The notes under the pieces: model-generated | What the model was told of the DNA's origin: nothing | Seen by the model: only the letters and a program-made list of their open reading frames with translations | Database searches by the model: none | Shown here: piece by piece, positions 2,925-29,305 of the stretch | Layout of the letters: each line of letters begins with the position of its first letter | Numbering within the stretch: the stretch's first letter is position 1 | Assembly: GCA_016180575.1 (NCBI GenBank) | Contig: JACPAY010000007.1 | Coordinates: 1,457 to 65,456, forward strand | Length of the DNA: 64,000 bases | From: Candidatus Omnitrophota bacterium | Lineage (GTDB): Bacteria > Omnitrophota > Gorgyraeia > Aquiviventales > Aquiviventaceae | Direction: 5' to 3' | Translations under genes and position numbers: made by a program

Positions 2925-3131
2925 ATGGCAGGGAAGCAATCGACAGCGAAGGCGCTGCGGGAGCTGCCGCGCGCGGATCTCCTCGCGGAGCTCTCGCGGC
3001 TCCGGCAGGAGCTGTGGCAGCACCGGATCAAAATCAGGGAAGGCGCGCAGCAGCAAATGCATCAGATCCCCGTGCTCCGGCGGCAGATCGCCCGGATCCA
3101 CACCGTGCTCAAGGAGAGCCGCACGCCATGA
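2925..3131 (+). CDS. rpmC: 50S ribosomal protein L29
   Basis: Track ORF, 68 aa, helical L29-like sequence between rplP and rpsQ. Confidence 0.9.
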
Positions 3132-3860: not shown

Positions 3861-3917
3861 ATGAGACAGGGGACAAGGGACAGGGGACATGTCTCCCGTC
3901 TCCTGTCTCATGTCTCC
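3861..3917 (+). repeat. R1 palindromic element, intergenic copy (rplN-rplX spacer)
   Basis: ATGAGACAGGGGACAAGGGACAGGGGAC / ATGTCTCCCGTCTCCTGTCTCATGTCTCC; arms built from 7-nt units GGGGACA and TGTCTCC. Confidence 0.85.
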
Positions 3918-5572: not shown

Positions 5573-6136
5573 ATGTCCCGCATCGGACGCGCCCCCATCC
5601 CGATGCCGACCGGCGTCAAGGTGACGCAGGAGGGTCCGCGGCTGCTCGTCGAGGGGCCGAAGGGGAAGCTGTCGCTCGCCATCCCCGCGGCGATCTCGGT
5701 CAGCGTGGACGGCCAGACGGTCCGGGTGCAGCGCGCCGGCGACGAGGCGCGCCAGCGGGCGCTGCACGGGCTGACCCGCGCCCTGGTCGCCAACATGGTC
5801 CACGGCGTCTCCGCCGGGTTTTCGAAAGAGCTGGAGATCGCGGGCGTCGGCTACCGGGCGCAGCTGCAGGGCAAACAGCTCTCGCTCCAGGTCGGGTTCT
5901 CGCATCCGGTCGTGGTCCCCATCCCCGAGGGGCTGACCGTGGAGGTGCCCAAGCCCACCTCGGTGGTGGTCAAGGGGTCCGACAAGCACCTCGTCGGGCA
6001 GTTCGCGGCCAACATCCGCCGCATCGCCCCGCCGGAGCCGTATAAGGGCAAGGGGATCAAGTACGCGGGAGAGATCATCCGCCGGAAAGCGGGGAAGGCC
6101 GCGACCGGCGCGGGCGCCAAGGCGCAAGCGGGATGA
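5573..6136 (+). CDS. rplF: 50S ribosomal protein L6
   Basis: Track ORF 5570..6136; ATG at 5573 gives [12 protein letters not shown]… typical L6. Confidence 0.95.
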
Positions 6137-6207
6137 TCCTTCGACTCGCTTCGCTCGCTCAGGATCATGGTGAGCAAGGCTCCGGCAGGAGCCGCGTCGA
6201 ACCATGA
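6132..6207 (+). repeat. R2 gene-junction element (rplF stop to rplR start)
   Basis: GATGATCCTTCGACTCGCTTCGCTCGCTCAGGATCATGGTGAGCAAG-GGCTCCGGCAGGAGCC-GCGTCGAACCATGA. Confidence 0.9.
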
Positions 6208-15077: not shown

Positions 15078-16177
15078 GCCGCCGCGTGACGTTCATTCCG
15101 GGGGACGGGATCGGGCCGGAGGTGGCCTGGGCGGCCCGGCGCTGCCTCGAGGCAACCGGGGTGGCGTTCCAGTGGGACGAGCGGATCGCCGGCGAGGCGG
15201 CCATCGCGCGGTTTCAGACGCCGCTGCCGGAGGAGACGCTCCAGTCCATCCGCGATAACCGCGTGGCGATCAAGGGCCCCATCACGACCCCCATCGGCAA
15301 GGGATTCCGGTCCGTGAACGTCGCGCTGCGCAAGCAGCTGAACCTGTTCGCCTGCGTGCGGCCCTGCCGGACGTACGCGGGCGTGCGCGCGCCGGTCCCC
15401 CAGGTCGATCTCATCATCGTCCGCGAGAACACCGAAGACCTCTACGCGGGCATCGAGTTCGCCGCGGGCGAGCCCCGCACCCGCCAGCTGATCGCCCAGC
15501 TGCGGGACTGGTCCCAGCAGGCCATCCAGGAGGACGCGGCGATCAGCATCAAGCCCATCTCCGCGGCCGCGACGGAGCGCATCGTGCGGTTCGCCTGCGA
15601 GTACGCGCTCGCGCGCGGCCGGAAAAAGGTGACGGCGGTCCACAAAGCGAATATCATGAAATGCACGGACGGCCTCTTCATGGAGACCGCCCGCCGCGTG
15701 GCGGGGGCCTACGCCGGGCGCCTCGCCTTCGAGGACCGGCTGGTGGACGCCACATGCATGCAGCTCCTCCTCCGGCCCGGGGACTTCGACGTGCTCGTGC
15801 TGCCGAACCTCTACGGCGACATCCTCTCGGACCTGTGCGCCGGCCTCATCGGGGGGCTCGGCATCGCGCCGGGGGCCAACATCGGGGAGGAGGCGGCGGT
15901 GTTCGAGGCGGTCCACGGCAGCGCCCCGAAGTACGCCGGGCAGAACAAGGTGAACCCGACCGCGATGATCCTCTCCGGCGTCATGCTGCTGCGCCACATC
16001 GGGGAGCCCGAGGCGGCGGACCGGCTGGACGGGGCGGTCGCGGCGGTGCTGCGGGAGGGCCGCGACGTGACGTACGACCTGAAGCCGGACCGCAACGACC
16101 CGACCGCGGTCGGCACGAAGGAGATGGCCGCCGCGATCATCGAGCGGATGAAAACGGTCAAGGTGAGAGTCCCATGA
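15074..16177 (+). CDS. icd: isocitrate/isopropylmalate dehydrogenase family, NAD-IDH-like
   Basis: In-frame ATG 15074 overlapping the previous stop; VTFIPGDGIGPEV…, VALRKQLNLFACVRPC…, IVRENTEDLYAG blocks. Confidence 0.85.
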   Translation: MSRRVTFIPGDGIGPEVAWAARRCLEATGVAFQWDERIAGEAAIARFQTPLPEETLQSIRDNRVAIKGPITTPIGKGFRSVNVALRKQLNLFACVRPCRTYAGVRAPVPQVDLIIVRENTEDLYAGIEFAAGEPRTRQLIAQLRDWSQQAIQEDAAISIKPISAAATERIVRFACEYALARGRKKVTAVHKANIMKCTDGLFMETARRVAGAYAGRLAFEDRLVDATCMQLLLRPGDFDVLVLPNLYGDILSDLCAGLIGGLGIAPGANIGEEAAVFEAVHGSAPKYAGQNKVNPTAMILSGVMLLRHIGEPEAADRLDGAVAAVLREGRDVTYDLKPDRNDPTAVGTKEMAAAIIERMKTVKVRVP

Positions 16178-16187
16178 TAGAGCGTTT

Positions 16188-16286
16188 GGCCGCGGGTCCT
16201 GCCGCGCCGCCACCCCGCCGGCTGTCCTCGGCCTCGTCGGCCTGCGGGCAGGCGGCGGGGGCCCCGGCTCCGCGTCACCCGCGGCC
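16188..16286 (+). repeat. R3 99-nt GC-rich element (icd-lipA junction)
   Basis: Termini GGCCGCGGGT…ACCCGCGGCC; near-identical to the copies at 25220 and 56515 (reverse complement). Confidence 0.9.
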
Positions 16287-17111
16287 GTCTGCGAGAGCGC
16301 GCGCTGTCCCAACTTGCACGAGTGCTGGTCCAAGCGGCAGCTCACGTTCATGATCCTGGGCGAGCGCTGCACCCGCAGCTGCCGCTTCTGCGCGGTGGCG
16401 CACGGCCGGCCCGAGCCGGTCGAGGCGGATGAGCCCTGGCGCGTGGCGGAGGCGGTGCGGCGGCTCGGCCTCGTGCACGTCGTCATCACGTCGGTGGCGC
16501 GGGACGACCTCCGGGATGAGGGCGCCGGCCACTTCATCGAGGTCATCCGGACGGTTCGCCGCGAGAACCCAGGCGTGACGGTGGAGATTCTTATCCCGGA
16601 CTTCCACGGCCGGGAGGAGCTGGTGCAGGCGGTCGTCGGGGACGGGCGGCCCGACGTCTTCGCCCACAACGTGGAAACGGTCGAGCGGCTCTCCGGCCTC
16701 CTGCGGCCGCAGGCGGCCTACCGACGGTCGCTGCGCGTGCTCGGCCTCGCCGCCTCGCAGGGCGGGGAGTGCCTGATCAAGTCCGGCCTGATGCTGGGCC
16801 TGGGCGAAACCGCTGAGGAGATGGAACGGACCTTCGAAGACCTGCGCGCGGCCGGCGCCACCCACCTGACCATCGGGCAGTACCTCCGGCCGGACGCCGA
16901 CCACCTGCCGGTGCAGGAGTACGTCAGCCCGGAGCGGTTCGCGGAGTACGAGGCGCTCGCCTACCGCGCGGGGTTTGCGTGGGTGCGGTCCGGCCCATTC
17001 GTCCGCAGCTCCTACCACGCCGCCGAAGGCGTACACATGAGGAGTCCGGTTCCCGCTTTCCTATCGGAGAACTCTGGGAAACCGGGAACCGGACCCGGGA
17101 CTATCGCATGA
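16287..17111 (+). CDS. lipA: lipoyl synthase; initiation codon unresolved, C-terminus runs into repeat R4
   Basis: Track ORF starts at TTG 16314, but the in-frame conserved CESARCPNLHEC (CX4CX5C) begins at 16290. Radical-SAM CTRSCRFC motif present. Frame is open back to 16167 with no ATG/GTG/TTG. Confidence 0.8.
   Translation, partial: VCESARCPNLHECWSKRQLTFMILGERCTRSCRFCAVAHGRPEPVEADEPWRVAEAVRRLGLVHVVITSVARDDLRDEGAGHFIEVIRTVRRENPGVTVEILIPDFHGREELVQAVVGDGRPDVFAHNVETVERLSGLLRPQAAYRRSLRVLGLAASQGGECLIKSGLMLGLGETAEEMERTFEDLRAAGATHLTIGQYLRPDADHLPVQEYVSPERFAEYEALAYRAGFAWVRSGPFVRSSYHAAEGVHMRSPVPAFLSENSGKPGTGPGTIA
17037..17106 (+). repeat. R4 70-nt hairpin element (lipA 3' end / aminotransferase start)
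   Basis: ATGAGGAGTCCGGTTCCCGCTTTCCTATCGGAGAACTCTGGGAAACCGGGAACCGGACCCGGGACTATCG; 12-bp perfect stem GTCCGGTTCCCG/CGGGAACCGGAC. Confidence 0.9.
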
Positions 17112-18385
17112 CACGCCGCATGCCGCTCTCCATCCGCCGCATCCAGCGGCAGCTGCGCGAGCGGACCCGGAGGGAACTGGCGCGGAGCAACCGCCGGCTG
17201 TTCCACGAGGCGAACCGGCTCAAGCGGCTGCCTCTCTACCTCTTCACCATCCTGGATGAGCTCAAGGCCCAAGCGGCGGCGCGCGGGACCGATGTGATCG
17301 ACTTGGGGATGGGCAACCCGGACCTGCCGCCGCCGGCGCACGTCGTCGCCGAGCTGGTCAAGCAGGCGAGGAAGCCGGCGAACCACCGCTACTCCCGGAA
17401 GGGCGGGGATGTCGAGCAGAAGCTGCTGGAGACCATCGCGGCCTGGTACCACCGCAAGTTCCGCGTCTCGCTGGACCCGGGCGCCGAGGTGCTGCCGCTC
17501 ATCGGGTCGAAGGAGGGCATCTCGCACCTCTCGCTGGCATTCCTCAACCACGACGATATCGCGCTCGTGCCGAACCCGACCTACCCGGTGCACTTCAACG
17601 GGGTGGTCATGGCGGGCGGCATCCTGTACAACCTGCCGATCCACGCCGAGACGCACTGGCTGCCGGACCTGCGCGCCATCCCCAAGAGCGTCCTGCGCCA
17701 GTCCAAGCTGCTCTTCCTGAGCTACCCCCATAACCCGACGACGGCGGTGGCGGACCTGCGCTTCTTCAGGGAGGCGGTGGCGTGGGCCCGGGCGCACCGG
17801 ATCATGATCATCCATGACTTCGCGTACTCCGACATCACCTTCGATGGGCTCCGGGCGCCGAGCATCCTCGAGGTCCCGGGGGCGAAAGAGGTGTGCGTGG
17901 AGTTCCACACGCTCTCGAAGTCCTACAGCCTGCCGGGGCTGCGCCTCGGCTTCGGGGTGGGGAACCGGGACGTCCTGGCCTCCCTCGCGAAGACGAAGAG
18001 CTACATCGACTTCGGCATCTTCCGGGCCGTGCAGTGGGCCGCCATCGCCGCCCTGGCCGGCCCCCAGCAGTACGTCCACCGCGCGGTCGCCACGTATGCG
18101 CGGCGGCGCGACCTGGTCGTGGACGGGCTCGCGGGGATCGGCTGGCACGTCCCGAAGCCGAAAGGCACCTTCTACATCTGGACGAAGATCCCGCTCAAGT
18201 TCAACGCCCTGACCTCGCTTGAGTTCGCCACGCTCCTCATGCAGGAAGCCGGCGTGGTCGTCTCCCCCGGCAGCGGGTTCGGGGAGTACGGGGAAGGGTT
18301 TGTCCGCTTCGCGCTCGTCGAGCCCGAGCCCAGATTGCGGGAGGCGATCAAGCGCATCGCGAGGGTCCTGCAGATGGAAGATTGA
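17108..18385 (+). CDS. class I/II aminotransferase (DapL/alanine aminotransferase-like)
   Basis: In-frame ATG 17108 in track ORF 16979..18385; DLGMGNPD…, SYPHNPT…, LSKSYSLPGLRLGF motifs. Confidence 0.8.
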   Translation: MTRRMPLSIRRIQRQLRERTRRELARSNRRLFHEANRLKRLPLYLFTILDELKAQAAARGTDVIDLGMGNPDLPPPAHVVAELVKQARKPANHRYSRKGGDVEQKLLETIAAWYHRKFRVSLDPGAEVLPLIGSKEGISHLSLAFLNHDDIALVPNPTYPVHFNGVVMAGGILYNLPIHAETHWLPDLRAIPKSVLRQSKLLFLSYPHNPTTAVADLRFFREAVAWARAHRIMIIHDFAYSDITFDGLRAPSILEVPGAKEVCVEFHTLSKSYSLPGLRLGFGVGNRDVLASLAKTKSYIDFGIFRAVQWAAIAALAGPQQYVHRAVATYARRRDLVVDGLAGIGWHVPKPKGTFYIWTKIPLKFNALTSLEFATLLMQEAGVVVSPGSGFGEYGEGFVRFALVEPEPRLREAIKRIARVLQMED

Positions 18386-18412
18386 GCGCGGCCTGCGAGA
18401 GGCTGCTGAGCC

Positions 18413-19591
18413 ATGAACGGACGACGGATCCTCTTGATGCACATCACCACCAGCTCCGGCCACCATCGCGCCAGCTGCGCCATCGAGCGGACCGTCAGGG
18501 CGCTCGACCCCTCCGCGACGATCGTCAACCTCGACGCCTTCCAGTTCACCAGCCGCTTCGTCCGCTGGGCGATCACCCGCACCTACACCTCGCTGATCCA
18601 CCACCAACCGGACGTCTGGGAGTACCTCTACGACAACCCCTCGGTCCACCGCCGGCTGCAGTATTTCCGGGCGCTGCTCCACCGCTACCACGCCGCCAAG
18701 CTCCAGCAGGTCATGGAGACGGTGCGGCCCGACGCCATCGCCTGCACCCAGGCCTACCCTTGCGGGGTGGTCGCGGATTTCAAAAAGCAGCACCGCCTGC
18801 GCGTGCCGCTCATCGGCGTGCTGACGGACTACGCGCCGCACCTCTATTGGTTCCATGACACCGTCGACGTGTACGTCGTCCCCTCCGAGCAGGTGAAGCG
18901 GCGCTTCGCCACCCGGGGGGTCGACCCGGCCCGGGTGCGGGCGCTCGGCATCCCCATCGACCCCCGCTTCCATGACCCCGTCGACCGGCAGGCGGCCGCC
19001 AGGCGATTCGGCCTGAACCCCGAGCAGCCGGTGCTCCTCATCATGGGCGGCGGCAGCGGGTTCGGCCAGATGCGGGAGATCGTCCTCAGCCTCGATACGC
19101 TGCCGCATCCCTGCCAGCTCGTCGTCCTCGCCGGGACCAACCGTCCGCTCCTCGCCTGGCTGCAGGGCCAGCGGTTCCGGCACCGAGTGCTGGCCGTCGG
19201 CTACACCGAGGAGGTGCCCGAGCTCATGTCCGTCGCCACGCTGCTCGTCAGCAAGCCGGGCGGCCTGACGACCTCCGAAGCGCTGGCCAAGCACCTGCCG
19301 CTCGTCATCGTCAATCCCATCCCGGGCCAGGAAGCATACAATGCCCGCTTCCTGCTGTCCCAGGGGGCGGCGGTCCAGGCCGCGTCGGCCGCGGCGGTCC
19401 GGCAGCCCGTGCGCGATCTCCTCGACGACCCGGAACAGCTCGAGACGCTGAAGCGGCGGAACGCGGAGCTCGCCCACCCCCGCGCGGCGCCCGCCATCGC
19501 GCGCCTGCTGTGCGAGCTCGCCGACCAGTACCGGGACCGCCCGCGGCCCGAAGCGGACCGCCCGCGGCCCACCGCGGAGGTGCTCTCCTGA
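18413..19591 (+). CDS. GT28-family glycosyltransferase (monogalactosyl/glucosyl-diacylglycerol synthase-like)
   Basis: Track ORF; N-terminal ILLMHITTSSGHHRAS… and C-terminal LVSKPGGLTTSEALAKHLPLVIVNPIPGQE resemble MGDG-synthase/UgtP family. Confidence 0.7.
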   Translation: MNGRRILLMHITTSSGHHRASCAIERTVRALDPSATIVNLDAFQFTSRFVRWAITRTYTSLIHHQPDVWEYLYDNPSVHRRLQYFRALLHRYHAAKLQQVMETVRPDAIACTQAYPCGVVADFKKQHRLRVPLIGVLTDYAPHLYWFHDTVDVYVVPSEQVKRRFATRGVDPARVRALGIPIDPRFHDPVDRQAAARRFGLNPEQPVLLIMGGGSGFGQMREIVLSLDTLPHPCQLVVLAGTNRPLLAWLQGQRFRHRVLAVGYTEEVPELMSVATLLVSKPGGLTTSEALAKHLPLVIVNPIPGQEAYNARFLLSQGAAVQAASAAAVRQPVRDLLDDPEQLETLKRRNAELAHPRAAPAIARLLCELADQYRDRPRPEADRPRPTAEVLS

Positions 19592-20427
19592 GCGCGAAGT
19601 ACGCCGCCTATCGAACGGCGCAATGGCTCAGCCAGCGCCTGCCGTCGCCGGCGGCATTCGGCTGCGCCGAGCGCGTGGCCGACCTGTGGATCCGGGGCGC
19701 CCGCCGCGAGCGCGCCGCGATCCGCGCCAACCTCGCCCTGGCGCTGGAGGCTGCCGCGCCGGAGGCCACACTCGTCCGGGAGGTGTTCCGCAACTTCGGC
19801 CGCTACCTGGTGGAGTTCTTCACCATCCATCAGACCCCGAAGCCCGCGGTGTCGGTCGAGGGCTACGACCATCTCCTGAACGCCAGGCGCCGGGGAAGCG
19901 GCGCCGTGCTCCTGACCGGCCACCTCGGCAACTGGGAGGTCGGGGCGGTCCTCCTGCGCCGCATGGGCCTGCCCGTCGCGGTGATCGCCCTGCCGCATGA
20001 CGATGCCGGGACGAACCGGCTCTTCAACCGCCAACGGCACCGCTGCGGCCTCGAGGTGATCCCGGTGGGCGAGGACGCGGCGCAGCGCAGCCTGCAGCGG
20101 CTCCGGGAAGGGTGCCTCCTCGGCGTCCTCGGCGACCGGGAGTTCGGCGGGCACGGCGTGCCGGTCCGCATCTTCCGCCGCGAGCTCCTCCTGCCGAGCG
20201 GCCCGGCCATCCTGAGCCTCCGGGCCCGCGTGCCGGTCATCCCCACGTTCCTCATCCGGGAAGGCCCCTGGCGCTTCCGCCTGTGCCTGGAGCCGGCCAT
20301 CCAGCCCGACGGGCAGGAGGGGGCCGCGTTGGTCCCTCGATTGACCCAGCGCTACGCGCAGGTCCTCGAGCGATACGTGCGGCGGACGCCGACGCAGTGG
20401 CTGCTCTTCGAGCCGGCCATGGGATGA
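19510..20427 (+). CDS. lysophospholipid/lipid A acyltransferase family protein (start uncertain)
   Basis: Track ORF; LLTGHLGNWEV (HX4D/E acyltransferase motif). GTG 19510 overlaps the upstream gene by 82 nt; CTG 19588 is an alternative start. Confidence 0.7.
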   Translation: MRARRPVPGPPAARSGPPAAHRGGALLSAKYAAYRTAQWLSQRLPSPAAFGCAERVADLWIRGARRERAAIRANLALALEAAAPEATLVREVFRNFGRYLVEFFTIHQTPKPAVSVEGYDHLLNARRRGSGAVLLTGHLGNWEVGAVLLRRMGLPVAVIALPHDDAGTNRLFNRQRHRCGLEVIPVGEDAAQRSLQRLREGCLLGVLGDREFGGHGVPVRIFRRELLLPSGPAILSLRARVPVIPTFLIREGPWRFRLCLEPAIQPDGQEGAALVPRLTQRYAQVLERYVRRTPTQWLLFEPAMG

Positions 20428-20948
20428 GGGCGCTCGTCATCAGCCACCTGCGCAACCAGGGGAAGGGCTGCGCCCTGCGGACCGGCTTCATGCATGCGCT
20501 GCGGGAGCACTTCGAGGGCATCGTCACCCTGGACAGCGACGGGCAGCACGACCCGGCCGACATCCCGCAGCTCATCGCCGAAGGCGAGCGGCAGCACGCG
20601 AGCCTGGTGCTCGGCAACCGGATGGCGAACGGCGCGCGGATGCCCACGGCGAGGCGGTGGACCAACGCCGCCATGTCGCGCCTCGTCTCGACGCGCATCC
20701 GGCAGCCCATCCCGGATTCCCAGTGCGGCTTCCGGTTCATCCACAAGGAACTGTTGGACACCCTCCCCCTGCGGGCGAAGCGGTTCGAAGGCGAGACCGA
20801 GCTGGTCATCTGGGCGGCTGTGCGGCGCTGGAAGATCATCTCCGTGCCGGTGCGCAGCACCGACCAGCGCCATCCCAGCCACATCCGCCCCGTGCGGGAC
20901 GCGGTCCGGTTCCTGGGCGTGCTGATCCGGTCGCTGGCCTGGCGATGA
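20424..20948 (+). CDS. glycosyltransferase family 2, N-terminally truncated (possible remnant)
   Basis: ATG 20424 overlapping the previous stop. NQGKGCALRTGF and LDSDGQHDP motifs present, but the usual N-terminal ~80 aa are absent in every frame upstream. Confidence 0.55.
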   Translation: MRALVISHLRNQGKGCALRTGFMHALREHFEGIVTLDSDGQHDPADIPQLIAEGERQHASLVLGNRMANGARMPTARRWTNAAMSRLVSTRIRQPIPDSQCGFRFIHKELLDTLPLRAKRFEGETELVIWAAVRRWKIISVPVRSTDQRHPSHIRPVRDAVRFLGVLIRSLAWR

Positions 20949-20984
20949 TCCAATGGTGAGCGAGTGAAACGAGTCGAACCATGA
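20944..20984 (+). repeat. R2 gene-junction element, short variant (GT2 stop to pcm start)
   Basis: GATGATCC-AATGGTGAGCGAG-TGAAA-CGAGTCGAACCATGA. Confidence 0.7.
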
Positions 20985-21619
20985 GCTTCGAGGAGCAGCG
21001 TGAGCAGATGGTCCTGGAGCAGCTCCTGGCTCGGGGGCTGACGGACGAACGGCTGCTGGCTGCCTTCCGCAAGGTCCCGCGCCACCGCTTCGTCCCGCCG
21101 GAGCTCGAGGCGCAAGCGTATACGGACCATCCGCTGCCGATCGGCGCCGGCCAGACGATCAGCCAGCCCTACATGGTGGCCCTGATGACCAGCCGCCTCG
21201 TCCTGCAGGGCCATGAGCGCGTCCTGGAAATCGGCGCGGGCTCCGGCTACCAGGCGGCCATCCTCGCGGAGCTGGCGCTGGAGGTCTTCTCCGTGGAGCG
21301 GATCCCGGAGCTGTTGCGCGCCGCGGCCGAGCGTCTGGGCGCCCTCGGGTACCTCAACGTCCACTTCACGGCCGGCAACGGATCGCTCGGATGGGCTGCG
21401 CATGCGCCCTACGACGCCATCGTGGTCACCGCAGCCGCCCCGGAGATCCCGGAACCGCTCCTCGCGCAACTGGCGGACGGCGGCACGATGGTCCTGCCCA
21501 TTGGCCCCCCCGAGGGCCAGATGCTCGTGGAGGCGCGCAAGCGGCATGGGACCGTCACGCAGCGCGAGATCGCCAGCTGCGTCTTCGTGCCGCTCCTCGG
21601 CCGATACGGCTGGACATGA
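20981..21619 (+). CDS. pcm: protein-L-isoaspartate O-methyltransferase
   Basis: Track ORF; ISQPYMVALMT…, VLEIGAGSGYQAAILAEL SAM motif; start ATG lies inside the short R2 repeat. Confidence 0.92.
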   Translation: MSFEEQREQMVLEQLLARGLTDERLLAAFRKVPRHRFVPPELEAQAYTDHPLPIGAGQTISQPYMVALMTSRLVLQGHERVLEIGAGSGYQAAILAELALEVFSVERIPELLRAAAERLGALGYLNVHFTAGNGSLGWAAHAPYDAIVVTAAAPEIPEPLLAQLADGGTMVLPIGPPEGQMLVEARKRHGTVTQREIASCVFVPLLGRYGWT

Positions 21620-22275
21620 GCGACCGGATGTTCCTCATCTCGTTCAGCGCCTCGGTGGGGCTCCACCTGCTGCTCGTCATCGGGCAGTTCCTCTCCTGGA
21701 GGTGGTTCGACCTGCCGAGGCAGCGCCTCGCCCTGGAGGTCATCTACGAGACGCTGGACGATCCGGCTGACGAGCTGCAGCTCCTCAAGGAGCAGCTCAC
21801 CCGCGCCACGCGCGAGACATCCGCCTCGCCGGCGCCGAGCGTCTCCGGCGCGCACACGCAGATCCGCATCCCGGACCGGCCCCTGCTGGCCGCCGAGCAG
21901 CCGCTGGCCGCGCTCATGCCGGACCGCGGGCCCATCGTGGACCTGACCAACCTCGTGGACGCCGCGCGCGGCGATCCGGTGCTGCTGAGCTACTTCGGCG
22001 CGATCCGCGAGCAGATCCAGCGGAAGGCCAACGAGCAGGCCTGGCTGGCGGGGGAGACCCACCAGGGGCTCGTGTACGTCTCCTTCCTCCTCACCGCAAG
22101 CGGCCGGCTCCAGGAAGTGGGGGTCGTGACGGAGCGGTCTGCCGGCGCCCGCCCGCTGTGGGAGGCGGCGCTGCGGATCATCAGGAGCTCGGCGCCGTTC
22201 CCGCCGTTCCCCCCCTCCATGGCCGACCCCAGCAAGACCATCATCGTGCCCCTCGAGTTCCTCGTCGATTCGTAG
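21616..22275 (+). CDS. TonB C-terminal-domain protein
   Basis: In-frame ATG 21616 overlapping the pcm stop; N-terminal TM helix; C-terminal GLVYVSFLLTASGRLQEV…APFPPFPP…IIVPLEF resembles the TonB_C fold. Confidence 0.65.
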   Translation: MSDRMFLISFSASVGLHLLLVIGQFLSWRWFDLPRQRLALEVIYETLDDPADELQLLKEQLTRATRETSASPAPSVSGAHTQIRIPDRPLLAAEQPLAALMPDRGPIVDLTNLVDAARGDPVLLSYFGAIREQIQRKANEQAWLAGETHQGLVYVSFLLTASGRLQEVGVVTERSAGARPLWEAALRIIRSSAPFPPFPPSMADPSKTIIVPLEFLVDS

Positions 22276-22279
22276 CGAA

Positions 22280-22308
22280 TTGACACCGTGAGGGCGGTAT
22301 CGTATAAT
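22280..22308 (+). promoter_or_regulatory. sigma70-type promoter upstream of rpsU (TTGACA-17 nt-TATAAT)
   Basis: Exact consensus hexamers at 22280-22285 and 22303-22308 with a 17-nt spacer; GAGGAG Shine-Dalgarno at 22321-22326 and ATG at 22332. Confidence 0.65.
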
Positions 22309-22331
22309 GCGCTCTGACGCGAGGAGATGCG

Positions 22332-22514
22332 ATGCCCCGGGTTGAAGTTCGAGACGATGAATCGCTGGAAAAGGCGCTGAGGCGATTCAAGCGCATGCTT
22401 GAGCGCGAAGGGACCCTCAAAGCGCTCAAGGCCAAGAAGCACTACGAGAAGCCGAGCGAGCGCAAGCGTCGGGAGCTCCGGCAGGCGATCAGCCGGCGCG
22501 CCCGCTCGGCGTAG
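22332..22514 (+). CDS. rpsU: 30S ribosomal protein S21
   Basis: Track ORF, 60 aa, MPRVEVRDDESLEKALRRFKRMLEREG… typical S21. Confidence 0.95.
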   Translation: MPRVEVRDDESLEKALRRFKRMLEREGTLKALKAKKHYEKPSERKRRELRQAISRRARSA

Positions 22515-25204
22515 TGTCCGTTCGCGTGCCCATCCCCCCTGCCGGCCAAACAACTCGGCTTCGCCGCCTCGATGAGAGGCCGTCCCCCCGGCACCGCGCC
22601 GGGGTCGTCGTGGCCGCCACAACCGCGCTCAGCATGCTGATGATGTCTCACAGTGCAAAGGCCGCCGTCCCGTCCCGCGCATCGGTGCATCACCTGGTGC
22701 TGGACAACGGCCTCCAGGCGGTCTGGGAAGAGGACCGCCGCCAGCCGCTGGTGGCCGTCGAGGTCCGCATCCAAGGCGGCCTGCGGGGCGAGGGCCGGTG
22801 GCTCGGCACCGGCATCACCCACTTCATCGAGCACATGCTCTTCAAAGGGACCCCCTCGCGCCCGCCCGGCACGATCGAGCAAGAGGTGCGCCGCTACGGC
22901 GGGACGATCAACGCCTTCACCTCGTTCGACGCCACCGGGGTCTCGCTGTTCGTGGAATCCCCCCACCTGCGCGACGCCCTCGTCATGCTGGCGGATATCC
23001 TGCAGCATGCCGTGTTCGACCAGGTCGAGTTCGAGAAGGAGCGGGCCGTCATCGTCTCCGAGATTCAGATGAACCGGGACGACCCCAACCGGCGCCTCCA
23101 CGAGTTGTTTTGGTCCCGCCATATGCTGGTACACCCCTACCGGCACCCCACCATCGGCTACCAGCCGCTCCTCGAGCGGCTGACGGTCCAGGACTTGACC
23201 GCCTTCTATGCCTCGCAGTACCAACCGCAGCACATCACCATCGCCTGCGTCGGCGACCTCGATGGCGCCGCCTTTCCGGCGCTGGTGCGGGAGCTCTTCG
23301 GGCCCTGGGCCCGGGGGACGACGGATCCCCTGCAGGAACTCGTCCCGGCGGAGCCGCCGAGCGCCAGCACGAAGCGCATCGAGATCGAGCTCCCCGTCCA
23401 GACCGCCTATGCGATGCTCGGGTTCTCCTCGGTGCGCCTCTCCGACCCGGACCTCTACCCGCTCGACGTGCTGGCCACCATCGTCGGGCAGGGGCGCAGC
23501 TCGCGGCTCTATGAAACCGTCGTCCGGACGCGGCGCCTGGCGCATGCCATCACCGCCTGGAACTACACCCCCTATGACCCGGGCGTCTTCGCCGTCCAGT
23601 GGCAGACCGACCCCGAGCAGCTCGACGCTTCGGCGGAGGCCATCCTCGACGTGCTGGACGATATCAAGCAGCGCGGGGCGAGCGAGGCCGAGCTCGAGAA
23701 GGCGAAGAAGGCGGTCACCGCCGCGTACCTCTTCGGCCTCCAGACGGTGGAGGCGAAGGCGGGCGACCTGGCTTCCTCCTTTGCCGAAACCGGGGACCCC
23801 CTGTTTTCGAGGCGCTACGTCGAGGGGATCGACCAGGTGACGGGTCCGCAGGTCAAGGCCGCCGCCCGGCGCTACTGCGACCGGTCCGCGATGACCCTGG
23901 CCGTCATCCGCCCCGCCGCGGCAGCCGCCGCACCGGCGGCTCCCGAGGCGCAGGCGGCGCCGGTCCCGGTCACGAAGACCGTCCTCGGCAACGGCGCCAC
24001 CGCGCTCATCGGCGTCGACCCCGGCCTGCCGATCGCGGCGATCGTCGTGGCGTTCCGCGGCGGGGTCCGCGTCGAGACGGACGACACCCAAGGCCTGTCC
24101 AACCTGGTCGCCCAGCTGCTCATCAAGGGGACGAAGCAGAAGAGCGCCCTCGAGATCGCCCAGGCGGTCGAATCACTGGGCGGGTCCATCGAACCGTTCA
24201 GCGGGCGGGACGGCTTCGGGGTCGTGCTGCAGCTCCTGGCCGCTGATGCGGCAACCGGCGTTGCGCTCCTGCATGAGCTGGTCACGCAGTCCACATTCCC
24301 TGAGGAGGAGCTGGCCATCCAGCGGAGGCTCATCACCAAGCAGCTGGCGGCCGAGGAGGACGAGCTGTTCGACGTCGGCGGGCGGCTGCTCCGGCAGACG
24401 CTCTTCGAGCGCCACCCCTACCGCTTCCATCCGCTCGGGGATGAGGACACCCTCAAGGTCCTGACGCGCGAGCAGTGCCTGGCGTTCGCCAGGCGCTGGC
24501 TCGTGCCGTCGAACGCCGTCGTCGCGGTCTTCGGCGACGTCGATGCGGCCGCCGTGGGCCGCCAGCTTGAGCGGTCATTCGGCGCCATCAAGCCGGGCGC
24601 GTCCGAGTGGCCGGACCGGCTGGCCGCCGAGCCGCTGGAGGACGTGCGCGAGGCCGCCCGCGCCATGGAGAAGGAGCAGGCGCTCATCATGCTCGGGTTC
24701 CGCGGCAGCACCTACGCGGCCGACGATCGCTATGCGCTCGATCTCCTGACGGCGGTGCTCTCCGGGATGTCCGGCCGGCTCTTCCAGGCGGTCCGCGAGC
24801 AGCACGGCCTCTCCTACACGCTGGGCGCCGTGCACGTCCCGGGCTGGGACCCCGGCTACCTGCTGGTGTACGCCGCGACGCGCCCCGAGGAAACGGCGCG
24901 GGTGCAGGCGGCGCTGCGGGACCAGCTCGCACTCGCCGCCGCCAAGGGGGTCGACGCGGAGGAACTCGAGCAGGCCAAGCGCTATCTCATCGGCCAGCAC
25001 CGGATGGAGCTCCAGCACCTGATCGGCCTGGCCAAGCGCTCCGCGCTGGATGAGCTCTACGGCATCGGCTACGATGCGTGGCGGAGCTATGAGGACAAGA
25101 TCAATGCCCTCACCGTGCCCGTGGTGAATGAGGCGGCGGCGCGCTACCTCACGATGCCACAGCATGCGGAAGTGGTGATTGCGCCCAATGGAAAAGCACC
25201 ATAG
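22514..25204 (+). CDS. fused double M16 (pitrilysin/insulinase) zinc peptidase
   Basis: Track ORF, 896 aa; HFIEH inverted zinc motif near the N-terminus; two M16/M16_C-like halves; hydrophobic signal-like segment. Start (GTG 22514) uncertain. Confidence 0.8.
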   Translation: MSVRVPIPPAGQTTRLRRLDERPSPRHRAGVVVAATTALSMLMMSHSAKAAVPSRASVHHLVLDNGLQAVWEEDRRQPLVAVEVRIQGGLRGEGRWLGTGITHFIEHMLFKGTPSRPPGTIEQEVRRYGGTINAFTSFDATGVSLFVESPHLRDALVMLADILQHAVFDQVEFEKERAVIVSEIQMNRDDPNRRLHELFWSRHMLVHPYRHPTIGYQPLLERLTVQDLTAFYASQYQPQHITIACVGDLDGAAFPALVRELFGPWARGTTDPLQELVPAEPPSASTKRIEIELPVQTAYAMLGFSSVRLSDPDLYPLDVLATIVGQGRSSRLYETVVRTRRLAHAITAWNYTPYDPGVFAVQWQTDPEQLDASAEAILDVLDDIKQRGASEAELEKAKKAVTAAYLFGLQTVEAKAGDLASSFAETGDPLFSRRYVEGIDQVTGPQVKAAARRYCDRSAMTLAVIRPAAAAAAPAAPEAQAAPVPVTKTVLGNGATALIGVDPGLPIAAIVVAFRGGVRVETDDTQGLSNLVAQLLIKGTKQKSALEIAQAVESLGGSIEPFSGRDGFGVVLQLLAADAATGVALLHELVTQSTFPEEELAIQRRLITKQLAAEEDELFDVGGRLLRQTLFERHPYRFHPLGDEDTLKVLTREQCLAFARRWLVPSNAVVAVFGDVDAAAVGRQLERSFGAIKPGASEWPDRLAAEPLEDVREAARAMEKEQALIMLGFRGSTYAADDRYALDLLTAVLSGMSGRLFQAVREQHGLSYTLGAVHVPGWDPGYLLVYAATRPEETARVQAALRDQLALAAAKGVDAEELEQAKRYLIGQHRMELQHLIGLAKRSALDELYGIGYDAWRSYEDKINALTVPVVNEAAARYLTMPQHAEVVIAPNGKAP

Positions 25205-25219
25205 TCCCTGGACCTGCGT

Positions 25220-25348
25220 GGCCGCGGGTCCTGCCGCGCCGCCACCCCGCCGGCTGTCCTCGGCCTGGTCGGCCTGCGGGCAGGCGGCGGGGGCCCCGGC
25301 TCCCCCGGCCCGCTCCGGCGTGCCGGGGCGGGCGCGTCACCCGCGGCC
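25220..25348 (+). repeat. R3 element, 129-nt variant with nested 30-nt insert
   Basis: Same termini; extra CCCCGGCCCGCTCCGGCGTGCCGGGGCGGG segment (itself a CCCCGGC/GCCGGGG hairpin). Confidence 0.9.
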
Positions 25349-25415
25349 CAGCGAGGTATTCGACACAGCACCTGGGATCGCTTCTGCGCCTGAGCCGAGG
25401 GTCCACCGACCGGCT

Positions 25416-26204
25416 GTGGCCGGCTATTACTACCCGGCGGAGCCGGACGCGCTGCGGGATGCGGTCGATGCCTGGAGCCGGCGGGAGGCGCCGCCCCTGC
25501 CGGCGCGCGCCGTGATCGTGCCGCATAGCAGTTTCGCCCGCTCCGGCGCCATCGCGGGGGCGATGTGCGCGCGAGTGGCGATCCCGCGCCGGTGCCTCCT
25601 CATCGGCCCCTCGCACACCGGCAGCCGGATGCGCTGGAGCCTGATGGCCGCCGGCGCCTATCAGACGCCGCTCGGCGAGGTGCCGGTCGATGAGGCCAGC
25701 GCGGAGGCGCTGCGCCTCCGATGCCCGTTCCTCGAGGTCGATGGCTCGGCGCAGCGCGGGGAGCATGCGCTCGAGGTCGTGCTCCCGTTCTTCCAGCGCC
25801 TCGGCCCGGCGGACCTGACGGCTCTCCCCATCGTGATGGGGGCGGAAGACGGGGGAGAGATCAGCCGGCTCGCCGACGCGATCGCCCAGACAGTCCGGAT
25901 GTCCGAGGAGCCCTGGCTGCTCATCGCCAGCGCCGACCTCTCGCAGCATGAGCCGCGCGACCGTGCCGTTCGGCTCGACCGCGCGGTCATCGAACGGATC
26001 GCCGCCCTGGACGGGGCGGGCCTGCTGCGCCTGGCGCGGGAGCGTCCCGCCCGGATGTGCGGCGCGGGCGCGGCCGCCTGCGTGCTCCAGGCCGCTGCGG
26101 CGCTGGGGGCGTCCCGCGGGACGCTCGTGCGATACGGCACCAGCGCCGACGCCGAGGGCGACCCGCACGCCGTCACCGGCTACGCCGGCTTCCTCATCGA
26201 GTGA
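25416..26204 (+). CDS. MEMO1/AmmeMemoRadiSam-system protein B family (start uncertain)
   Basis: Track ORF 25179..26204. Conserved domain begins AGYYYPAEPDALRDAV. GTG 25416 is the nearest start; ATG 25179 would read through repeat R3. Confidence 0.7.
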   Translation: MAGYYYPAEPDALRDAVDAWSRREAPPLPARAVIVPHSSFARSGAIAGAMCARVAIPRRCLLIGPSHTGSRMRWSLMAAGAYQTPLGEVPVDEASAEALRLRCPFLEVDGSAQRGEHALEVVLPFFQRLGPADLTALPIVMGAEDGGEISRLADAIAQTVRMSEEPWLLIASADLSQHEPRDRAVRLDRAVIERIAALDGAGLLRLARERPARMCGAGAAACVLQAAAALGASRGTLVRYGTSADAEGDPHAVTGYAGFLIE

Positions 26205-26207
26205 CGC

Positions 26208-26627
26208 ATGGACGAGCCGATCAAGAAGCGGGTGGATGAATCCTGGAAAGAGCAGGCCGAGCGGGAGAAGCATGCCGCGGCCGGAGCCGCCGCCTCGCCC
26301 GCCGGCCAGTCACCCGCTGCCAGACCGGCTGCCGCGGCGGGACCCGCCCCGGAGGAGCGCGGAAGCGCCGAGGAGCTGCCGGAGGCGCGCTTTGACCTCT
26401 TCCTCTCGGGCCTGGCGATGGAAGCGCTCATCGCCCTCGGCGACATGCCCCATCCAGCCACGCGGAAGCAGGCGGTGAACCTGCCCCACGCCAAGTACCT
26501 CGTTGACCTCCTCGGCGTGCTGGAAGAGAAGACGAAAGGCAACCTCACGGCGGACGAAGACAAGCTGTTCAAGGACACGCTCTACCAGCTCCGGATGCGG
26601 TACCTCGCGAAGGCGGGCGGGCCATGA
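26208..26627 (+). CDS. DUF1844-like protein
   Basis: Track ORF; C-terminal FDLFLSGLAMEALIALGDMPHP…AKYLVDLLGVLEEKTKGNL resembles DUF1844. Confidence 0.6.
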   Translation: MDEPIKKRVDESWKEQAEREKHAAAGAAASPAGQSPAARPAAAAGPAPEERGSAEELPEARFDLFLSGLAMEALIALGDMPHPATRKQAVNLPHAKYLVDLLGVLEEKTKGNLTADEDKLFKDTLYQLRMRYLAKAGGP

Positions 26628-27622
26628 CGCTGCTGACCGCGCTGCTCGCCGGGGGTGTCGTGCTCGCGCTGGCGGTGTACATCCTGCGGCAGGCGGCGCA
26701 GATGATCCGGCACCGGCTCGAGGCGCTCGAGCAGGCCGCCCGGAGGCAGGTGGAGGAGCGCGAGGCGCTGATCCGGCAGCGGAGCGAGGAGCTGCTCCAG
26801 CAGCGCCGGGAGACCATCGAGCAGATCGCCGCGATCCACGAACGGTTCGGGCAGGTCCAGACCCAGATCCAGGGGCTGCACGAGCTGCAGGGCAAGGTCG
26901 GAGAGCTCAACGACCTGCTCAAACCGCAGCAGCTGCGGGGCGAGCTGGGGGAGGTCATCGTGCGGAACCTCCTGGCCGACAAGCTGCCCAAGCAGTACGA
27001 AGAGGAGCACACGTTTTCGGATGGCAAGAAGGTCGAGTTCGCGATCCGGCTGAACGACAAGCTGATCCCGGTCGATTCCAAGCTCCAGCTCGAAGACTAC
27101 AAGCGGCTGCGGGACGCCGATGAGCGGCAGCGTCCGGCGCTGCGGACCGAGTTCAAACGGAAGGTGCGGCAGAAGATCGACGAGGTGAAGCAGTACATCC
27201 GCCCGCAGGAGGGGACGACGAACTTCGCCTTGATGGTGATCCCCTCCGAGGCGGTGTTCTACGAGCTGGTGGCGAGCAAGGATTTCACGGAGGACGGCGG
27301 CCTCTACGACTACGCGCAGATGCAGCGCGTGTTCCTGACCTCGCCGCTGACGTTCTGGGCGTACCTCACGACCATCGCCCAGGGGCTGAAGGGCCTCGAG
27401 ATCGAGCACCGGGCCGAAGAGGTGCTCGCCTCGCTGCAGCACCTCGCCGCCCAGGTGCGCAGCTTCGTGCAGGAGGAGTTCCGGAAGCTCGGCGGCCACC
27501 TGCGCAACGCCACCAGCCAGTACGATCAGGCCGAGAAGGCGCTGAAAGACGTGGAGCAGGCCCTGACGGACCTGGAGCGGATCGGCGCCCCCCACCAGCC
27601 GCACGAGGGCGCGATTCCATGA
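26624..27622 (+). CDS. rmuC: DNA recombination protein RmuC
   Basis: Track ORF; N-terminal TM helix, long coiled coil, then LRGELGEVIVRNLLADKLP…FAIRLNDKLIPVDSK RmuC-like nuclease region. Confidence 0.8.
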   Translation: MTLLTALLAGGVVLALAVYILRQAAQMIRHRLEALEQAARRQVEEREALIRQRSEELLQQRRETIEQIAAIHERFGQVQTQIQGLHELQGKVGELNDLLKPQQLRGELGEVIVRNLLADKLPKQYEEEHTFSDGKKVEFAIRLNDKLIPVDSKLQLEDYKRLRDADERQRPALRTEFKRKVRQKIDEVKQYIRPQEGTTNFALMVIPSEAVFYELVASKDFTEDGGLYDYAQMQRVFLTSPLTFWAYLTTIAQGLKGLEIEHRAEEVLASLQHLAAQVRSFVQEEFRKLGGHLRNATSQYDQAEKALKDVEQALTDLERIGAPHQPHEGAIP

Positions 27623-27789
27623 TCGACCCGAAGCTGCTGGAGATCCTGATCTGCCCGGCCTGCAAGGCCGAGGTGAAGCTGGAGCAGGACCGCCTCGTCT
27701 GCACTCGATGCGGGCGGCGCTATCCCATCCGCGACGGGATCCCCGTCATGCTGATCGGCGAGGCCGAGCCGGGCCCGGCGGGCAGATGA
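27619..27789 (+). CDS. Trm112/UPF0434 (YcaR)-family small zinc-ribbon protein
   Basis: Not in the track (56 aa). Hand translation MIDPKLLEILICPACKAEVKLEQDRLVCTRCGRRYPIRDGIPVMLIGEAEPGPAGR; ATGA overlaps at both ends. Confidence 0.85.
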   Translation: MIDPKLLEILICPACKAEVKLEQDRLVCTRCGRRYPIRDGIPVMLIGEAEPGPAGR

Positions 27790-28220
27790 AGATCCTGGTG
27801 ATCCACGGGCCGAACCTCCAGCTCCTGGGCAAGCGCCAACCCTCCATCTACGGGCACGCGGACCTGGCGTCGATCAACCGGGACCTCAAGCGGCGGGCGG
27901 CGGCGCGGCGGGCGGCGCTGACCATCGTGCAGTCCAACCATGAGGGCGAGATCGTGGAGCGGATCGGCGCGGCCAAGGACCGCTATGACGCGATCCTCAT
28001 CAACCCGGCCGCCTACACGCACACCAGCGTCGCCATCCGCGACGCGATCGAGGCCGCCGGCGTGCCCGCGGTGGAGGTCCACCTCTCCAACATCTACGCG
28101 CGCGAGCCGTTCCGGCACCAGTCGCTGATCGCCCCGGTCTGCCGGGGCCAGGTCTGCGGGTTCGGCGCCGCCAGCTACCGCTTGGGGCTCGAAGCGGCCC
28201 TCGCGCTGGGGAAGCATTGA
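27786..28220 (+). CDS. aroQ: type II 3-dehydroquinate dehydratase
   Basis: In-frame ATG 27786 in track ORF 27708..28220; MKILVIHGPNLQLLGKRQPSIYG… and HLSNIYAREPFRH motifs. Confidence 0.95.
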   Translation: MKILVIHGPNLQLLGKRQPSIYGHADLASINRDLKRRAAARRAALTIVQSNHEGEIVERIGAAKDRYDAILINPAAYTHTSVAIRDAIEAAGVPAVEVHLSNIYAREPFRHQSLIAPVCRGQVCGFGAASYRLGLEAALALGKH

Positions 28221-28777
28221 TGATCTCGACGACCGAGTTCCGCAGCGGCGTCGCGGTCGTCCTCGACGGCCAGCTCTGGACCATCGTGGAGTTCCAGCAC
28301 GTCAAGCCCGGCAAGGGGGGCGCCTTCGTCCGCACGAAGCTGCGGCGAATGCGGGATGGGTCCGTCATCGAGCGCACCTTCCGGGCCGGCGAGAAGTTCC
28401 AGGAGGCCTATGTCGAGAAGCGGACGTTCCAATACCTCTATCGGACCGCCGACGCCTTCCACCTGATGGACACCGCGTCGTACGAGCAGCTCCAGGTCCC
28501 GGCGTCCGCGCTGGGGCAGGCGGCGGGCTTCCTCAAGGAGAACATGGAGCTGGAAGGCCAGTTCCACGAGGGGCAGCTCATCGGCATCCAGCCGCCCATG
28601 TTCGTCGACGTCCACGTGCAGTCCACCGAGCCCGGCGTGCGGGGCGACACCTCCAAGGGCGGCATGAAGCCAGCGACCTTGGAAACCGGCGCCACCATCC
28701 AGGTGCCGCTCTTCATTGAACCGGGCGACCTGATCCGGGTCGACACGAGGACCAGCTCCTACGTCTCCCGCGTGTAA
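28220..28777 (+). CDS. efp: elongation factor P
   Basis: Track ORF 28217..28777 (ATG 28220); FQHVKPGKGGAFVRTKLR loop with conserved Lys. Confidence 0.95.
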   Translation: MISTTEFRSGVAVVLDGQLWTIVEFQHVKPGKGGAFVRTKLRRMRDGSVIERTFRAGEKFQEAYVEKRTFQYLYRTADAFHLMDTASYEQLQVPASALGQAAGFLKENMELEGQFHEGQLIGIQPPMFVDVHVQSTEPGVRGDTSKGGMKPATLETGATIQVPLFIEPGDLIRVDTRTSSYVSRV

Positions 28778-28804
28778 GGGCCGCGGCAACCGAGCGAGGG
28801 CAAC

Positions 28805-29284: not shown

Positions 29285-29305
29285 CCCCGCGGGCGCCCCC
29301 GGCCG

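Follow-up and report, generated by a model that had tools for sequence, protein, structure and literature searches.

Two groups of short repeats come closest to the element described here. Mycobacterial interspersed repetitive units (MIRUs), in the account of Supply et al. 1997 given in PMC12548453, insert at start codons and carry an open reading frame (ORF) coupled at −4 nt to the gene; Rickettsia palindromic elements (RPEs), as outlined for Ogata et al. 2000 in PMC10969869, are in-frame palindromic insertions. The element R4, found in a stretch of 64,000 nucleotides from a Candidatus Omnitrophota bacterium (assembly GCA_016180575.1, contig JACPAY010000007.1; hereafter the window), would join these two features known separately, namely the ATGA relay of MIRUs and the palindromic in-frame insertion of RPEs. 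R4 is probably a lineage-specific, non-autonomous palindromic repeat, mobile or recently mobile, that is tolerated between genes as a translation relay; it belongs to the broad class that includes MITEs (miniature inverted-repeat transposable elements), RPEs and MIRUs, and forms a new family within an already known, "polite" type of selfish DNA without representing a new mechanism. The DNA compared amounts to 158 kb, made up of the window and about 95 kb of collected loci, of which L001–L007 belong to the metagenome-assembled genome (MAG) nzgw327 (JAHFGZ01), L010 and L017 to GCA_016196345 (JACPXX01), and L008, L009 and L011 to Hainich and JGI metagenome contigs; the three window copies are called win1, win2 and win3.

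Like MIRUs, R4 is a short repeat between co-directional genes of operons (PMC12548453), and the start of its internal ORF overlaps the upstream stop codon (ATGA, −4) in eight of 11 copies. For the end of this ORF, which in MIRUs is coupled to the downstream start, the R4 copies give a mixed picture: coupling is seen in win1 (−4), L011 (+4), L008/L009 (0) and possibly win2, and it does not occur in L003, L004 and L017. MIRUs, too, are presented there as tolerated through relayed translation. In contrast, the same text depicts MIRUs as non-palindromic and arranged in tandem arrays (variable number tandem repeats) in Mycobacterium, whereas R4 consists, in Omnitrophota, of single hairpin units with covarying arms and with only truncated 3' remnants alongside, often forms an in-frame fusion with the protein next to it and has no sequence similarity to MIRUs. 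With RPEs R4 shares the palindromic structure, a length that is a multiple of three and the in-frame position in unrelated housekeeping genes with the addition of a peptide segment; the corresponding cases are the 69 nt in lipA, an 87-nt insertion in rfaE2 and the R4 ATG frame fused to Era, to a GT2 glycosyltransferase and to thrC. RPEs are there given as 100–150 bp long and located within ORFs of an intracellular alphaproteobacterium, whereas R4 measures 69 nt, lies at gene ends and supplies its own stop and start codons; homology of R4 to the Rickettsia RPE families is very unlikely because phylum, length and GC content differ.

The R4 Unit and Its Hairpin

The window contains two full copies of R4 on the forward strand, win1 at 17037–17105 (69 nt, corresponding to 23 codons from ATG to ATC; 100.2 bits with a covariance model that, together with the consensus, was made from 12 R4 copies) and win2 at 32338–32406 (102.5 bits), and one truncated copy on the same strand, win3, at 45209–45248 (25.4 bits), in which the right arm and the 3' tail directly follow the 5' ATGAGGAG and the hairpin is absent. 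The repeats 17034–17106 and 32335–32407, which form repeat family D8, are 97% identical; the right-hand 21-mer GGGAACCGGACCCGGGACTAT has three exact occurrences in the window (17084, 32385 and 45226) versus 0.01 expected, the left end ATGAGGAGTCCGGTTCCCG occurs twice, and all three copies begin with (A/C)ATGAGGAG. An earlier note, made from the letters of the window alone, had described the coordinates of R4, its (A/C) start and the presence of two full copies and a truncated one, and all its sequence statements hold. Downstream of win2, the segment GGGACTTTCG (32417–32426, forward strand) matches the pattern GGGACT.TCG and would be the remnant of a second R4 3' end.

The unit opens with an ATGA start/stop overlap and closes with ...GGGACTATC. 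The tails are fixed across the aligned copies, with (A/T)CA(A/C)ATGAGGAG (CAMATGAGGAG) at the 5' end and CCCGGGACTATCG at the 3' end, the hexamer GAGGAG being identical in all 13 full copies, and the loop between them varies. The ATG frame is free of stops with the exception of L003, where a stop lies in the loop. The inverted repeat is internal: in win1 the hairpin extends from 17041 to 17096 on the forward strand and, by folding and covariation, comprises 20 pairs and a 13-nt loop, built of GG, a bulged A, 12 bp, a C.C mismatch and 6 bp, and it is flanked by the non-complementary conserved tails CAMATGA (5') and GGGACTATCG (3'). The stem GTCCGGTTCCCG/CGGGAACCGGAC, lengthened by TTTCC/GGAAA, had been noticed beforehand as a perfect 12-bp stem, which is correct, and with the GG/CC at its base the whole hairpin reaches 20 bp. 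As RNA, R4 folds with −36.8 kcal/mol (z −3.9; none of 200 shuffles as good), and as DNA with about −19 to −21 kcal/mol on either strand (−18.9 kcal/mol being given for one fold). Five pairs of the stem are altered on both sides, 97.5% of the cells are paired, the covariation score is matched by none of 500 shuffles and the signal is lost when the register is slid; the hairpin is the part of R4 that is under structural constraint.

Distribution of the Family

Across four related Omnitrophota genomes and metagenomes, 13 full copies of R4 were counted in addition to truncated ones; at least nine copies are located in nzgw327 and three in the 64-kb window, with unit sizes of 69–74 nt. A scan for the 21-mer over one genome per species matched only the Candidatus Omnitrophota MAG nzgw327, at seven loci, and a metagenome scan with a gapped pattern of both ends matched two contigs, both representing one locus (rpmE/prfA); tracing LipA and RfaE2 homologues to their contigs led to extra copies in GCA_016196345 and in Hainich groundwater contigs (L011 and L012). 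The covariance model detected no further copies over the 158 kb, and R4 had no match in the plasmid collection. The six R4 reading frames, concatenated, scored nothing against a set of 5.8 billion proteins, and an exhaustive phmmer search of the LipA tail against 1.84 billion representative proteins gave one weak low-complexity match. Rfam identified two tRNAs only in the window, its best match on R4 (15 bits, E=3.3) being under the gathering threshold, and a literature search returned no account of repeats in Omnitrophota. The family, very scarce in public data, is confined to a narrow, rarely sampled clade of groundwater Omnitrophota, and the nucleotide identity of lipA among the R4-carrying genomes is about 89–90%.

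At least four stem subfamilies can be distinguished, characterized by TCCGGTTCCCG.. in the window, ..CCCT.. in nzgw327, ACCGCTTCCC.. in L017 and L002b, and ACCGGGTCTA.. in L005. They differ through compensatory substitutions, as in the stem variants CCCG/CGGG of the window versus CCCT/AGGG of nzgw327, and the copies resemble one another more within than between genomes, whatever the locus. Beside an R4 copy of nzgw327 (L002, 912–945) there are also GGTAGCGCTACC palindromes.

Position at Gene Ends and Use of the Stop Codon

R4 is found nearly exclusively at the junctions between genes of the same direction. Its relationship to the upstream neighbours was evaluated on the 11 co-oriented copies in which the ATGAGGAG end is preserved and the preceding gene lies on the same strand (from the window, nzgw327, GCA_016196345 and the Hainich metagenome contigs), with reading frames assigned by third-position GC (GC3) signature and Pfam. 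The TGA of R4 is the stop codon of the upstream gene in eight of them (binomial P about 0.009 against 1/3), which code for GmhA (window and L017), Hom, PolX, a PilO-like protein, PurB, Icd and one unnamed ORF; two further copies have a TAA 3–4 nt ahead of the R4 ATG, after Ugd and an epimerase, and lipA is the sole read-through. In particular, TGA 32339–32341 closes the 190-residue SIS-domain GmhA ORF (31769–32341) and TGA 45210–45212 closes the homoserine dehydrogenase gene hom, which confirms the two cases recognized in the earlier note; the prospect it had raised against itself, that most copies elsewhere would be unrelated to stop codons, is contradicted by the TGA used in 8/11 copies and the TAA adjacent in 2/11.

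Taking all loci, R4 is co-oriented with the genes at 12 and reversed at one (rpmE/prfA, L008/L009). The window copies alone are uninformative on orientation because the forward strand carries every one of its roughly 60 ORFs whose GC3 signature is that of coding DNA, many of their stops and starts overlapping or abutting. Overlaps of −4 are also native to these genomes, as in seven of the 17 junctions of L010, and the genes flanking R4 copies have no function in common.

Insertion in lipA

The lipA frame of the window (LipA, MBI2104605.1) crosses the whole of win1 as a 24-residue stretch and stops at TGA 17109–17111, which overlaps the ATG (17108–17110) of a class I/II aminotransferase in a native ATGA (17108–17111, forward strand); the TGA of R4 itself (17038–17040, forward strand) is out of phase with lipA. 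The phase, the run through the element and the stop that overlaps the next ATG had been read correctly beforehand. The empty sites of five relatives (L011–L015) have the sequence ...TTG CAC GGA TGA CCC..., again with the lipA TGA overlapping the aminotransferase ATG (L011, GGATGACC), and lack exactly the 69 nt that occupy the filled site, ...GTA CAC [69 nt] GCA TGA CAC...; both flanks, a conserved CAC to the left and a G to the right, pre-exist in the empty site. The lipA copy therefore reads as a clean in-frame insertion of 69 nt one codon before the native stop, with the ATGA overlap intact, since the empty sites of the relatives keep the same stop and overlap. As an illustration of what happens when the phase does not match, which was the earlier interpretation, lipA is valid as regards the out-of-phase TGA, but no stop has been lost, the insertion preceding an intact native one. 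A target-site duplication of ATGA or CATGA was considered and rejected, as it would strip native lipA of its stop and a plain 69-nt insertion fits exactly.

R4-free relatives of LipA terminate 5–6 residues past SSYHA (AEALHG, VEALS and GEALA), and none of the relatives compared has a tail equivalent to that encoded by R4. Further LipA relatives carry unrelated tails of up to 42 residues; the C-terminus of the protein is permissive. In nzgw327 the site harbours only the truncated right half of R4, and the LipA tail is ...EGVPRLSGTGPGTIAS. The lipA 3' end of GCA_016196345 (L010, 5560–5600) has a 13-residue tail, IEAIQETTVETSS, encoded by AGAAACGACAGTCGAGACATCG; with a similarity of about 60% to GGGAACCGGACCCGGGACTATCG, the right half of R4, this sequence may be what is left of a decayed copy.

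Insertion between gmhA and rfaE2

In the empty site of L016, gmhA and rfaE2 overlap by 23 nt and the rfaE2 ATG lies inside gmhA. Compared with it, the window contains an insertion of 87 nt (29 codons) that includes win2, and its GmhA, ended by the R4 TGA, is three residues shorter. The probable start of rfaE2 (hldE-C, heptose-1-phosphate adenylyltransferase) is ATG 32328–32330 on the forward strand, which is also the rfaE2 ATG of the relative with the empty site; judging from the frames, the window RfaE2 most likely keeps this start and reads R4 in its third frame, because there is no other ATG, GTG or TTG in frame before the CTP_transf_like domain. Two apparent signals at this junction were discarded: a target-site duplication of TCAAAT, the native sequence resuming upstream of the second TCAAAT, and the resemblance of RfaE2 N-termini (MRSS...) to the R4-encoded MRSP..., a coincidence given that the codons differ.

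The same junction of GCA_016196345 (L017, 495–665) bears an R4 insertion of 83 nt and an rfaE2 without a canonical start, for which the annotation pipeline PGAP uses CTG 607. Here gmhA and rfaE2 share one frame and are parted only by the R4 TGA and an otherwise open element frame, so that readthrough of this TGA would give a GmhA-RfaE2 fusion.

The R4 Frame and the Downstream Genes

The frame that starts at the R4 ATG appears, by its relation to the downstream genes, to be translated into them or up to them. In nzgw327 the G-domain of Era begins seven residues past R4 (L001) and the GT2 glycosyltransferase domain about 5–10 residues past it (L007), and in both genes the sole available ATG, GTG or TTG is the R4 ATG; likewise, the called start of Memo in L010 is the ATG of a variant R4. 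The window thrC, downstream of win3, and the gene after L002a are also in frame with the R4 ATG, thrC having an alternative GTG start at 45269. In the four cases L001, L007, L002a and win3, this in-frame fusion takes the place of a coupled ORF end. Elsewhere the ATG-frame ORF terminates next to the following start: in an ATGA (−4) in win1, 4 nt before the lipA ATG in L011 and in CTGA in win2, and in the reversed locus rpmE/prfA (L008/L009) a 26-codon ORF runs from the ATGA of rpmE to the TGA-ATG of prfA. Bypassing by ribosomes, as in T4 gene 60, was set aside, since no matching conserved take-off and landing codons were found in the element.

Occupied and Empty Junctions

The occupation of gene junctions by R4 is polymorphic. 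The lipA/aminotransferase junction holds a full copy in the window, a truncated one in nzgw327 and none in L011–L015; at gmhA/rfaE2 the window and L017 each carry R4, L017 with a different subfamily, and L016, the closer relative, is empty. At icd/lipA, R4 occurs in L011 only; its place is taken by another repeat, D1, in the window and by other palindromes in nzgw327, and L010 and L013–L015 have none; at peptidase M16/Memo, L010 holds an R4 variant plus a half copy and the window again D1. Moreover, 3' remnants of R4 are stacked downstream of full copies. From these sequence comparisons the pattern is that expected if R4 is mobile or is being actively homogenised and reuses gene junctions, because the junctions are polymorphic, the stem variants are genome-specific and 3' remnants are stacked.

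Relation to Other Small Repeats

Repetitive extragenic palindromic (REP) sequences and the related BIMEs and REPINs of proteobacteria resemble R4 as extragenic GC-rich hairpins that separate co-transcribed genes and are often no more than about 15 nt away from a stop codon, and REPs can reportedly stabilise the upstream mRNA, as Newbury is said to have found in 1987. They differ in that REPs are 20–40 nt long with a 5' GTAG, whereas R4 has 69 nt and no GTAG in its 12-copy consensus, and in that REPs often occur as inverted pairs, are linked to REP-associated tyrosine transposases (RAYTs) and are untranslated; neither pairs nor a RAYT link were seen for R4 in the 158 kb compared. The Correia/NEMIS (Neisseria) and ERIC/YPAL (enterobacteria) families are likewise dispersed small palindromic repeats co-transcribed with their neighbours, and De Gregorio et al. 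reportedly described them in 2003 and 2005 as forming long RNA hairpins, potential targets of RNase III or RNase E, with orientation-dependent effects. Unlike R4, they measure 100–160 bp, have true terminal inverted repeats (with a TA target duplication in the case of Correia) and do not systematically supply the stop or start codons of neighbours.

Miniature inverted-repeat transposable elements share with R4 the small size, the lack of a transposase gene, the several dispersed near-identical copies and the presence/absence polymorphism (at three junctions); R4 has neither terminal inverted repeats nor, in the one clean pair, a target-site duplication. Similarities to the attC sites of integrons concern a structured site (57–141 nt in attC) just after or overlapping a stop codon, the conservation of the fold rather than of the sequence, and conserved ends around a variable centre. 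However, the RYYYAAC and GTTRRRY cores are missing from the R4 consensus, and R4 lies among housekeeping genes of operons with no integrase nearby; an attC identity was therefore rejected on the grounds of the missing core motifs and of the lack of a gene-cassette context.

Proposed Mechanism and Alternative Explanations

In the explanation considered probable, R4 would persist at the junctions of tightly packed co-directional genes, whose native arrangement is ATGA, TGATG or a longer overlap. Its TGA would end the upstream gene, ribosomes would restart at the overlapping R4 ATG, and the 23-codon frame would either give the downstream protein a short N-terminal leader, flexible and rich in Pro, Gly and Ser, or end at a stop overlapping or abutting the downstream start codon, as a translational relay; where the R4 ATG falls in phase with the upstream gene, which is the lipA case, a C-terminal insertion would result. 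R4 could be inserted, and would probably be translated, with neither flanking gene broken, and might be nearly neutral, R4 being tolerated because it carries a stop, an overlapping start and a stop-free frame of 3n nucleotides that would relay ribosomes. The hairpin would most likely be the substrate of an enzyme that moves or homogenises the copies, and at the RNA level an additional influence on coupling or mRNA processing is probable.

Several observations weigh against this explanation. The analysis identified no enzyme, transposase or other, that would mobilise R4, no long ORF flanked by R4-like ends occurs within the 158 kb, the inverted repeat is internal rather than terminal and the lipA insertion, the one clean filled/empty pair, has no duplicated flank. 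The compensatory changes in the stem could also derive from hairpin-templated repair at the DNA level and not from selection. As regards the relay, the ATG frame of L003 stops in the loop, that of L004 enters the next gene out of frame and the downstream gene of L017, without a canonical start, is outside the pattern; L002b lies away from any co-oriented gene end, a stop-free ATG frame says little by itself, as open frames are common in DNA of 65–70% GC, and with only about 16 loci collected, several of them orthologous, the statistics are thin.

The alternative that survives best, although it is itself rather improbable, is that R4 is mainly a selected cis-acting RNA structure that sets the expression of its neighbours, mobility being secondary. 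The preservation of the hairpin by compensatory changes while the loop varies, the highly conserved single-stranded tails, the orientation bias (12 loci versus one), a stem length about that of an RNase III substrate and the occupation of gmhA/rfaE2 by R4 in two genomes all point in this direction. Three roles are possible: a 20-bp hairpin 3–4 nt past the stop could stall terminating ribosomes, which a REP near a stop codon reportedly does according to work of Liang, Rudd and Deutscher in 2015; the upstream cistron could be shielded from 3' exonucleases; or the hairpin could be cleaved by RNase III, as is the case for Correia/NEMIS and ERIC repeats. On the other hand, the same housekeeping junctions are empty in close relatives, where R4 is thus dispensable, and truncated copies without the hairpin persist (45209–45248, L006 and L005). 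The flanking genes are functionally unrelated, the element belongs to no Rfam family and its antisense strand folds equally well. A primary RNA function is less likely because of the empty sites and of the persistence of hairpin-less copies.

Sequence-specific targeting, instead of random insertion followed by selection, would be a different way for R4 to reach gene junctions, and it is judged unlikely. In detail, a single-strand HUH/Y1 enzyme (an IS200/IS605 TnpA or a RAYT-like protein), recognising the hairpin, would insert R4 beside a short motif, for instance (C)A(A/C)ATGA or G, and, ATGA being the commonest stop/start overlap, copies would gather at gene ends and beside old copies. The lack of a target-site duplication in lipA, combined with conserved non-palindromic tails around a covarying hairpin, would fit a hairpin-recognising single-strand enzyme, and targeting is also consistent with the repeated presence of different subfamilies at the same junctions, with the stacking of 3' remnants downstream of full copies and with the CAC and G that pre-exist in the lipA empty site. 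Against these stand the single clean filled/empty pair, the fact that the left ATGA at lipA is R4's own and not the target's, and the missing GTAG hallmark of REPs; no Y1 or RAYT gene turned up in the 158 kb, where no systematic search was made for them. A wider proposal, doubtful as well, sees in R4 a mobile stop-start adaptor that homes to ATGA junctions and rewires coupling and protein termini. If this were true, homing would probably depend on a hairpin-recognising single-strand enzyme, a direct overlap would give way to a structured 23-codon relay or to a Pro/Gly-rich tag at the N- or C-terminus, which would tune the stoichiometry between adjacent housekeeping proteins, and targeting, possibly together with selection, would explain why different subfamilies repeatedly occupy the same junctions.

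The function of the GGAG motif was likewise evaluated. According to the earlier note, R4 targets or carries gene-end signals, that is, a stop codon and a Shine-Dalgarno-like GGAG; the first part is borne out by the TGA, really used in the eight copies counted above, whereas GGAG is probably not a Shine-Dalgarno site, such a function being unsupported because the motif is paired in the stem base (G9, G10 and G12, three of its four bases, in the predicted fold of every subfamily) and far from the downstream start codons (55–75 nt). A split Shine-Dalgarno, in which the hairpin brings GGAG near the start, as known from phage T4 genes 25 and 38, is very improbable: with the stem closed, 8–13 unpaired nt do separate the stem base from the start in L003, L002 and win1, and GAGGAG is invariant in 13/13 copies, but this spacing would be at or past the functional limit, the same three G are engaged in pairing and several downstream genes, without a start near the 3' end, must use an ATG upstream of GGAG. 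Finally, an intrinsic terminator, suggested by the stable GC-rich hairpin at gene ends, or an artefact of assembly or chance has a negligible probability, given that the stem is followed by CCCGGGACUAUCG and no U tract, that a scan of 16000–33000 called no terminator at either full copy, that R4 lies inside operons with downstream genes starting 0–15 nt later, that it is present in independent assemblies from NCBI, ENA, Logan and JGI, and that three matches were observed versus 0.01 expected.

Implications for Annotation and Translation Studies

The main importance of R4 is the risk that it poses to annotation, along with its being a neat example from nature of an insertion carrying the signals that it interrupts. 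Many start and stop codons in these MAGs come from repeats: the window LipA and the RfaE2 of GCA_016196345 are both called from a CTG, and Era, GT2 and Memo appear to bear repeat-encoded leaders. Pipelines blind to repeats will mis-call such termini, and comparative proteomics will show spurious "lineage-specific" tails. More generally, R4 would be a compact natural case of selfish DNA colonising a gene-dense genome whose genes overlap, while carrying the signals it disrupts. If the element is translated, R4-encoded peptides such as MRSPVPSFPSEHSRK would mark this translation, and the copies would constitute a natural series of hairpin-bearing stop/start junctions for the study of termination-reinitiation. 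The scope is limited in that the family is confined to a rare lineage and opens no long-standing question.

D1 and Other Repeats at Gene Junctions

D1 is a GC-rich repeat of 85–99 nt with inverted ends GGCCGCGGGT...ACCCGCGGCC, whose three copies (16187–16271, 25219–25303 and 42661–42745, two of them 99% identical) are all at gene junctions. At icd/lipA in the window, D1 (about 16188–16286, region 16175–16320) takes the place of the initial ~32 lipA codons, which in relatives encode MQRYPRWLKQTFSPDG...LET. The lipA frame has no ATG, GTG or TTG before TTG 16314, which lies inside the CX4CX5C auxiliary-cluster motif, and GenBank places the LipA start at a CTG within D1. ATG 16175 overlaps the icd stop (ATGA) and reads D1 out of frame with lipA, its ORF stopping at 16351–16353 on an in-frame lipA ATG; the window lipA may be damaged or may start unconventionally. 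In nzgw327 the corresponding region upstream of lipA (L006, about 3010–3090) contains gcggaat/attccgc arrays.

At the junction between peptidase M16 and Memo in the window (25189–25401), D1 is read in the Memo frame, the start being either ATG 25189 or a GTG near 25321, and the M16 stop TAG (25201–25203) falls within CCATAGTCCCTGGACC, the reverse complement of a motif like the R4 3' end; the same junction of GCA_016196345 (L010, 14150–14330) contains an R4-variant hairpin and an R4 3' half. A further repeat of 51 nt, D16 (6128–6178 and 30653–30703), is 96% identical between its copies and has an internal TGATCCT...AGGATCA palindrome, its second copy being just upstream of pfk. The hairpin repeats D2, D3 and D6, at 3862–3916, 51019–51090, 51727–51798 and 53739–53957, are built of GGGGACA/GAGACAG heptamers that face the complements TGTCTCC/TGTCCC.

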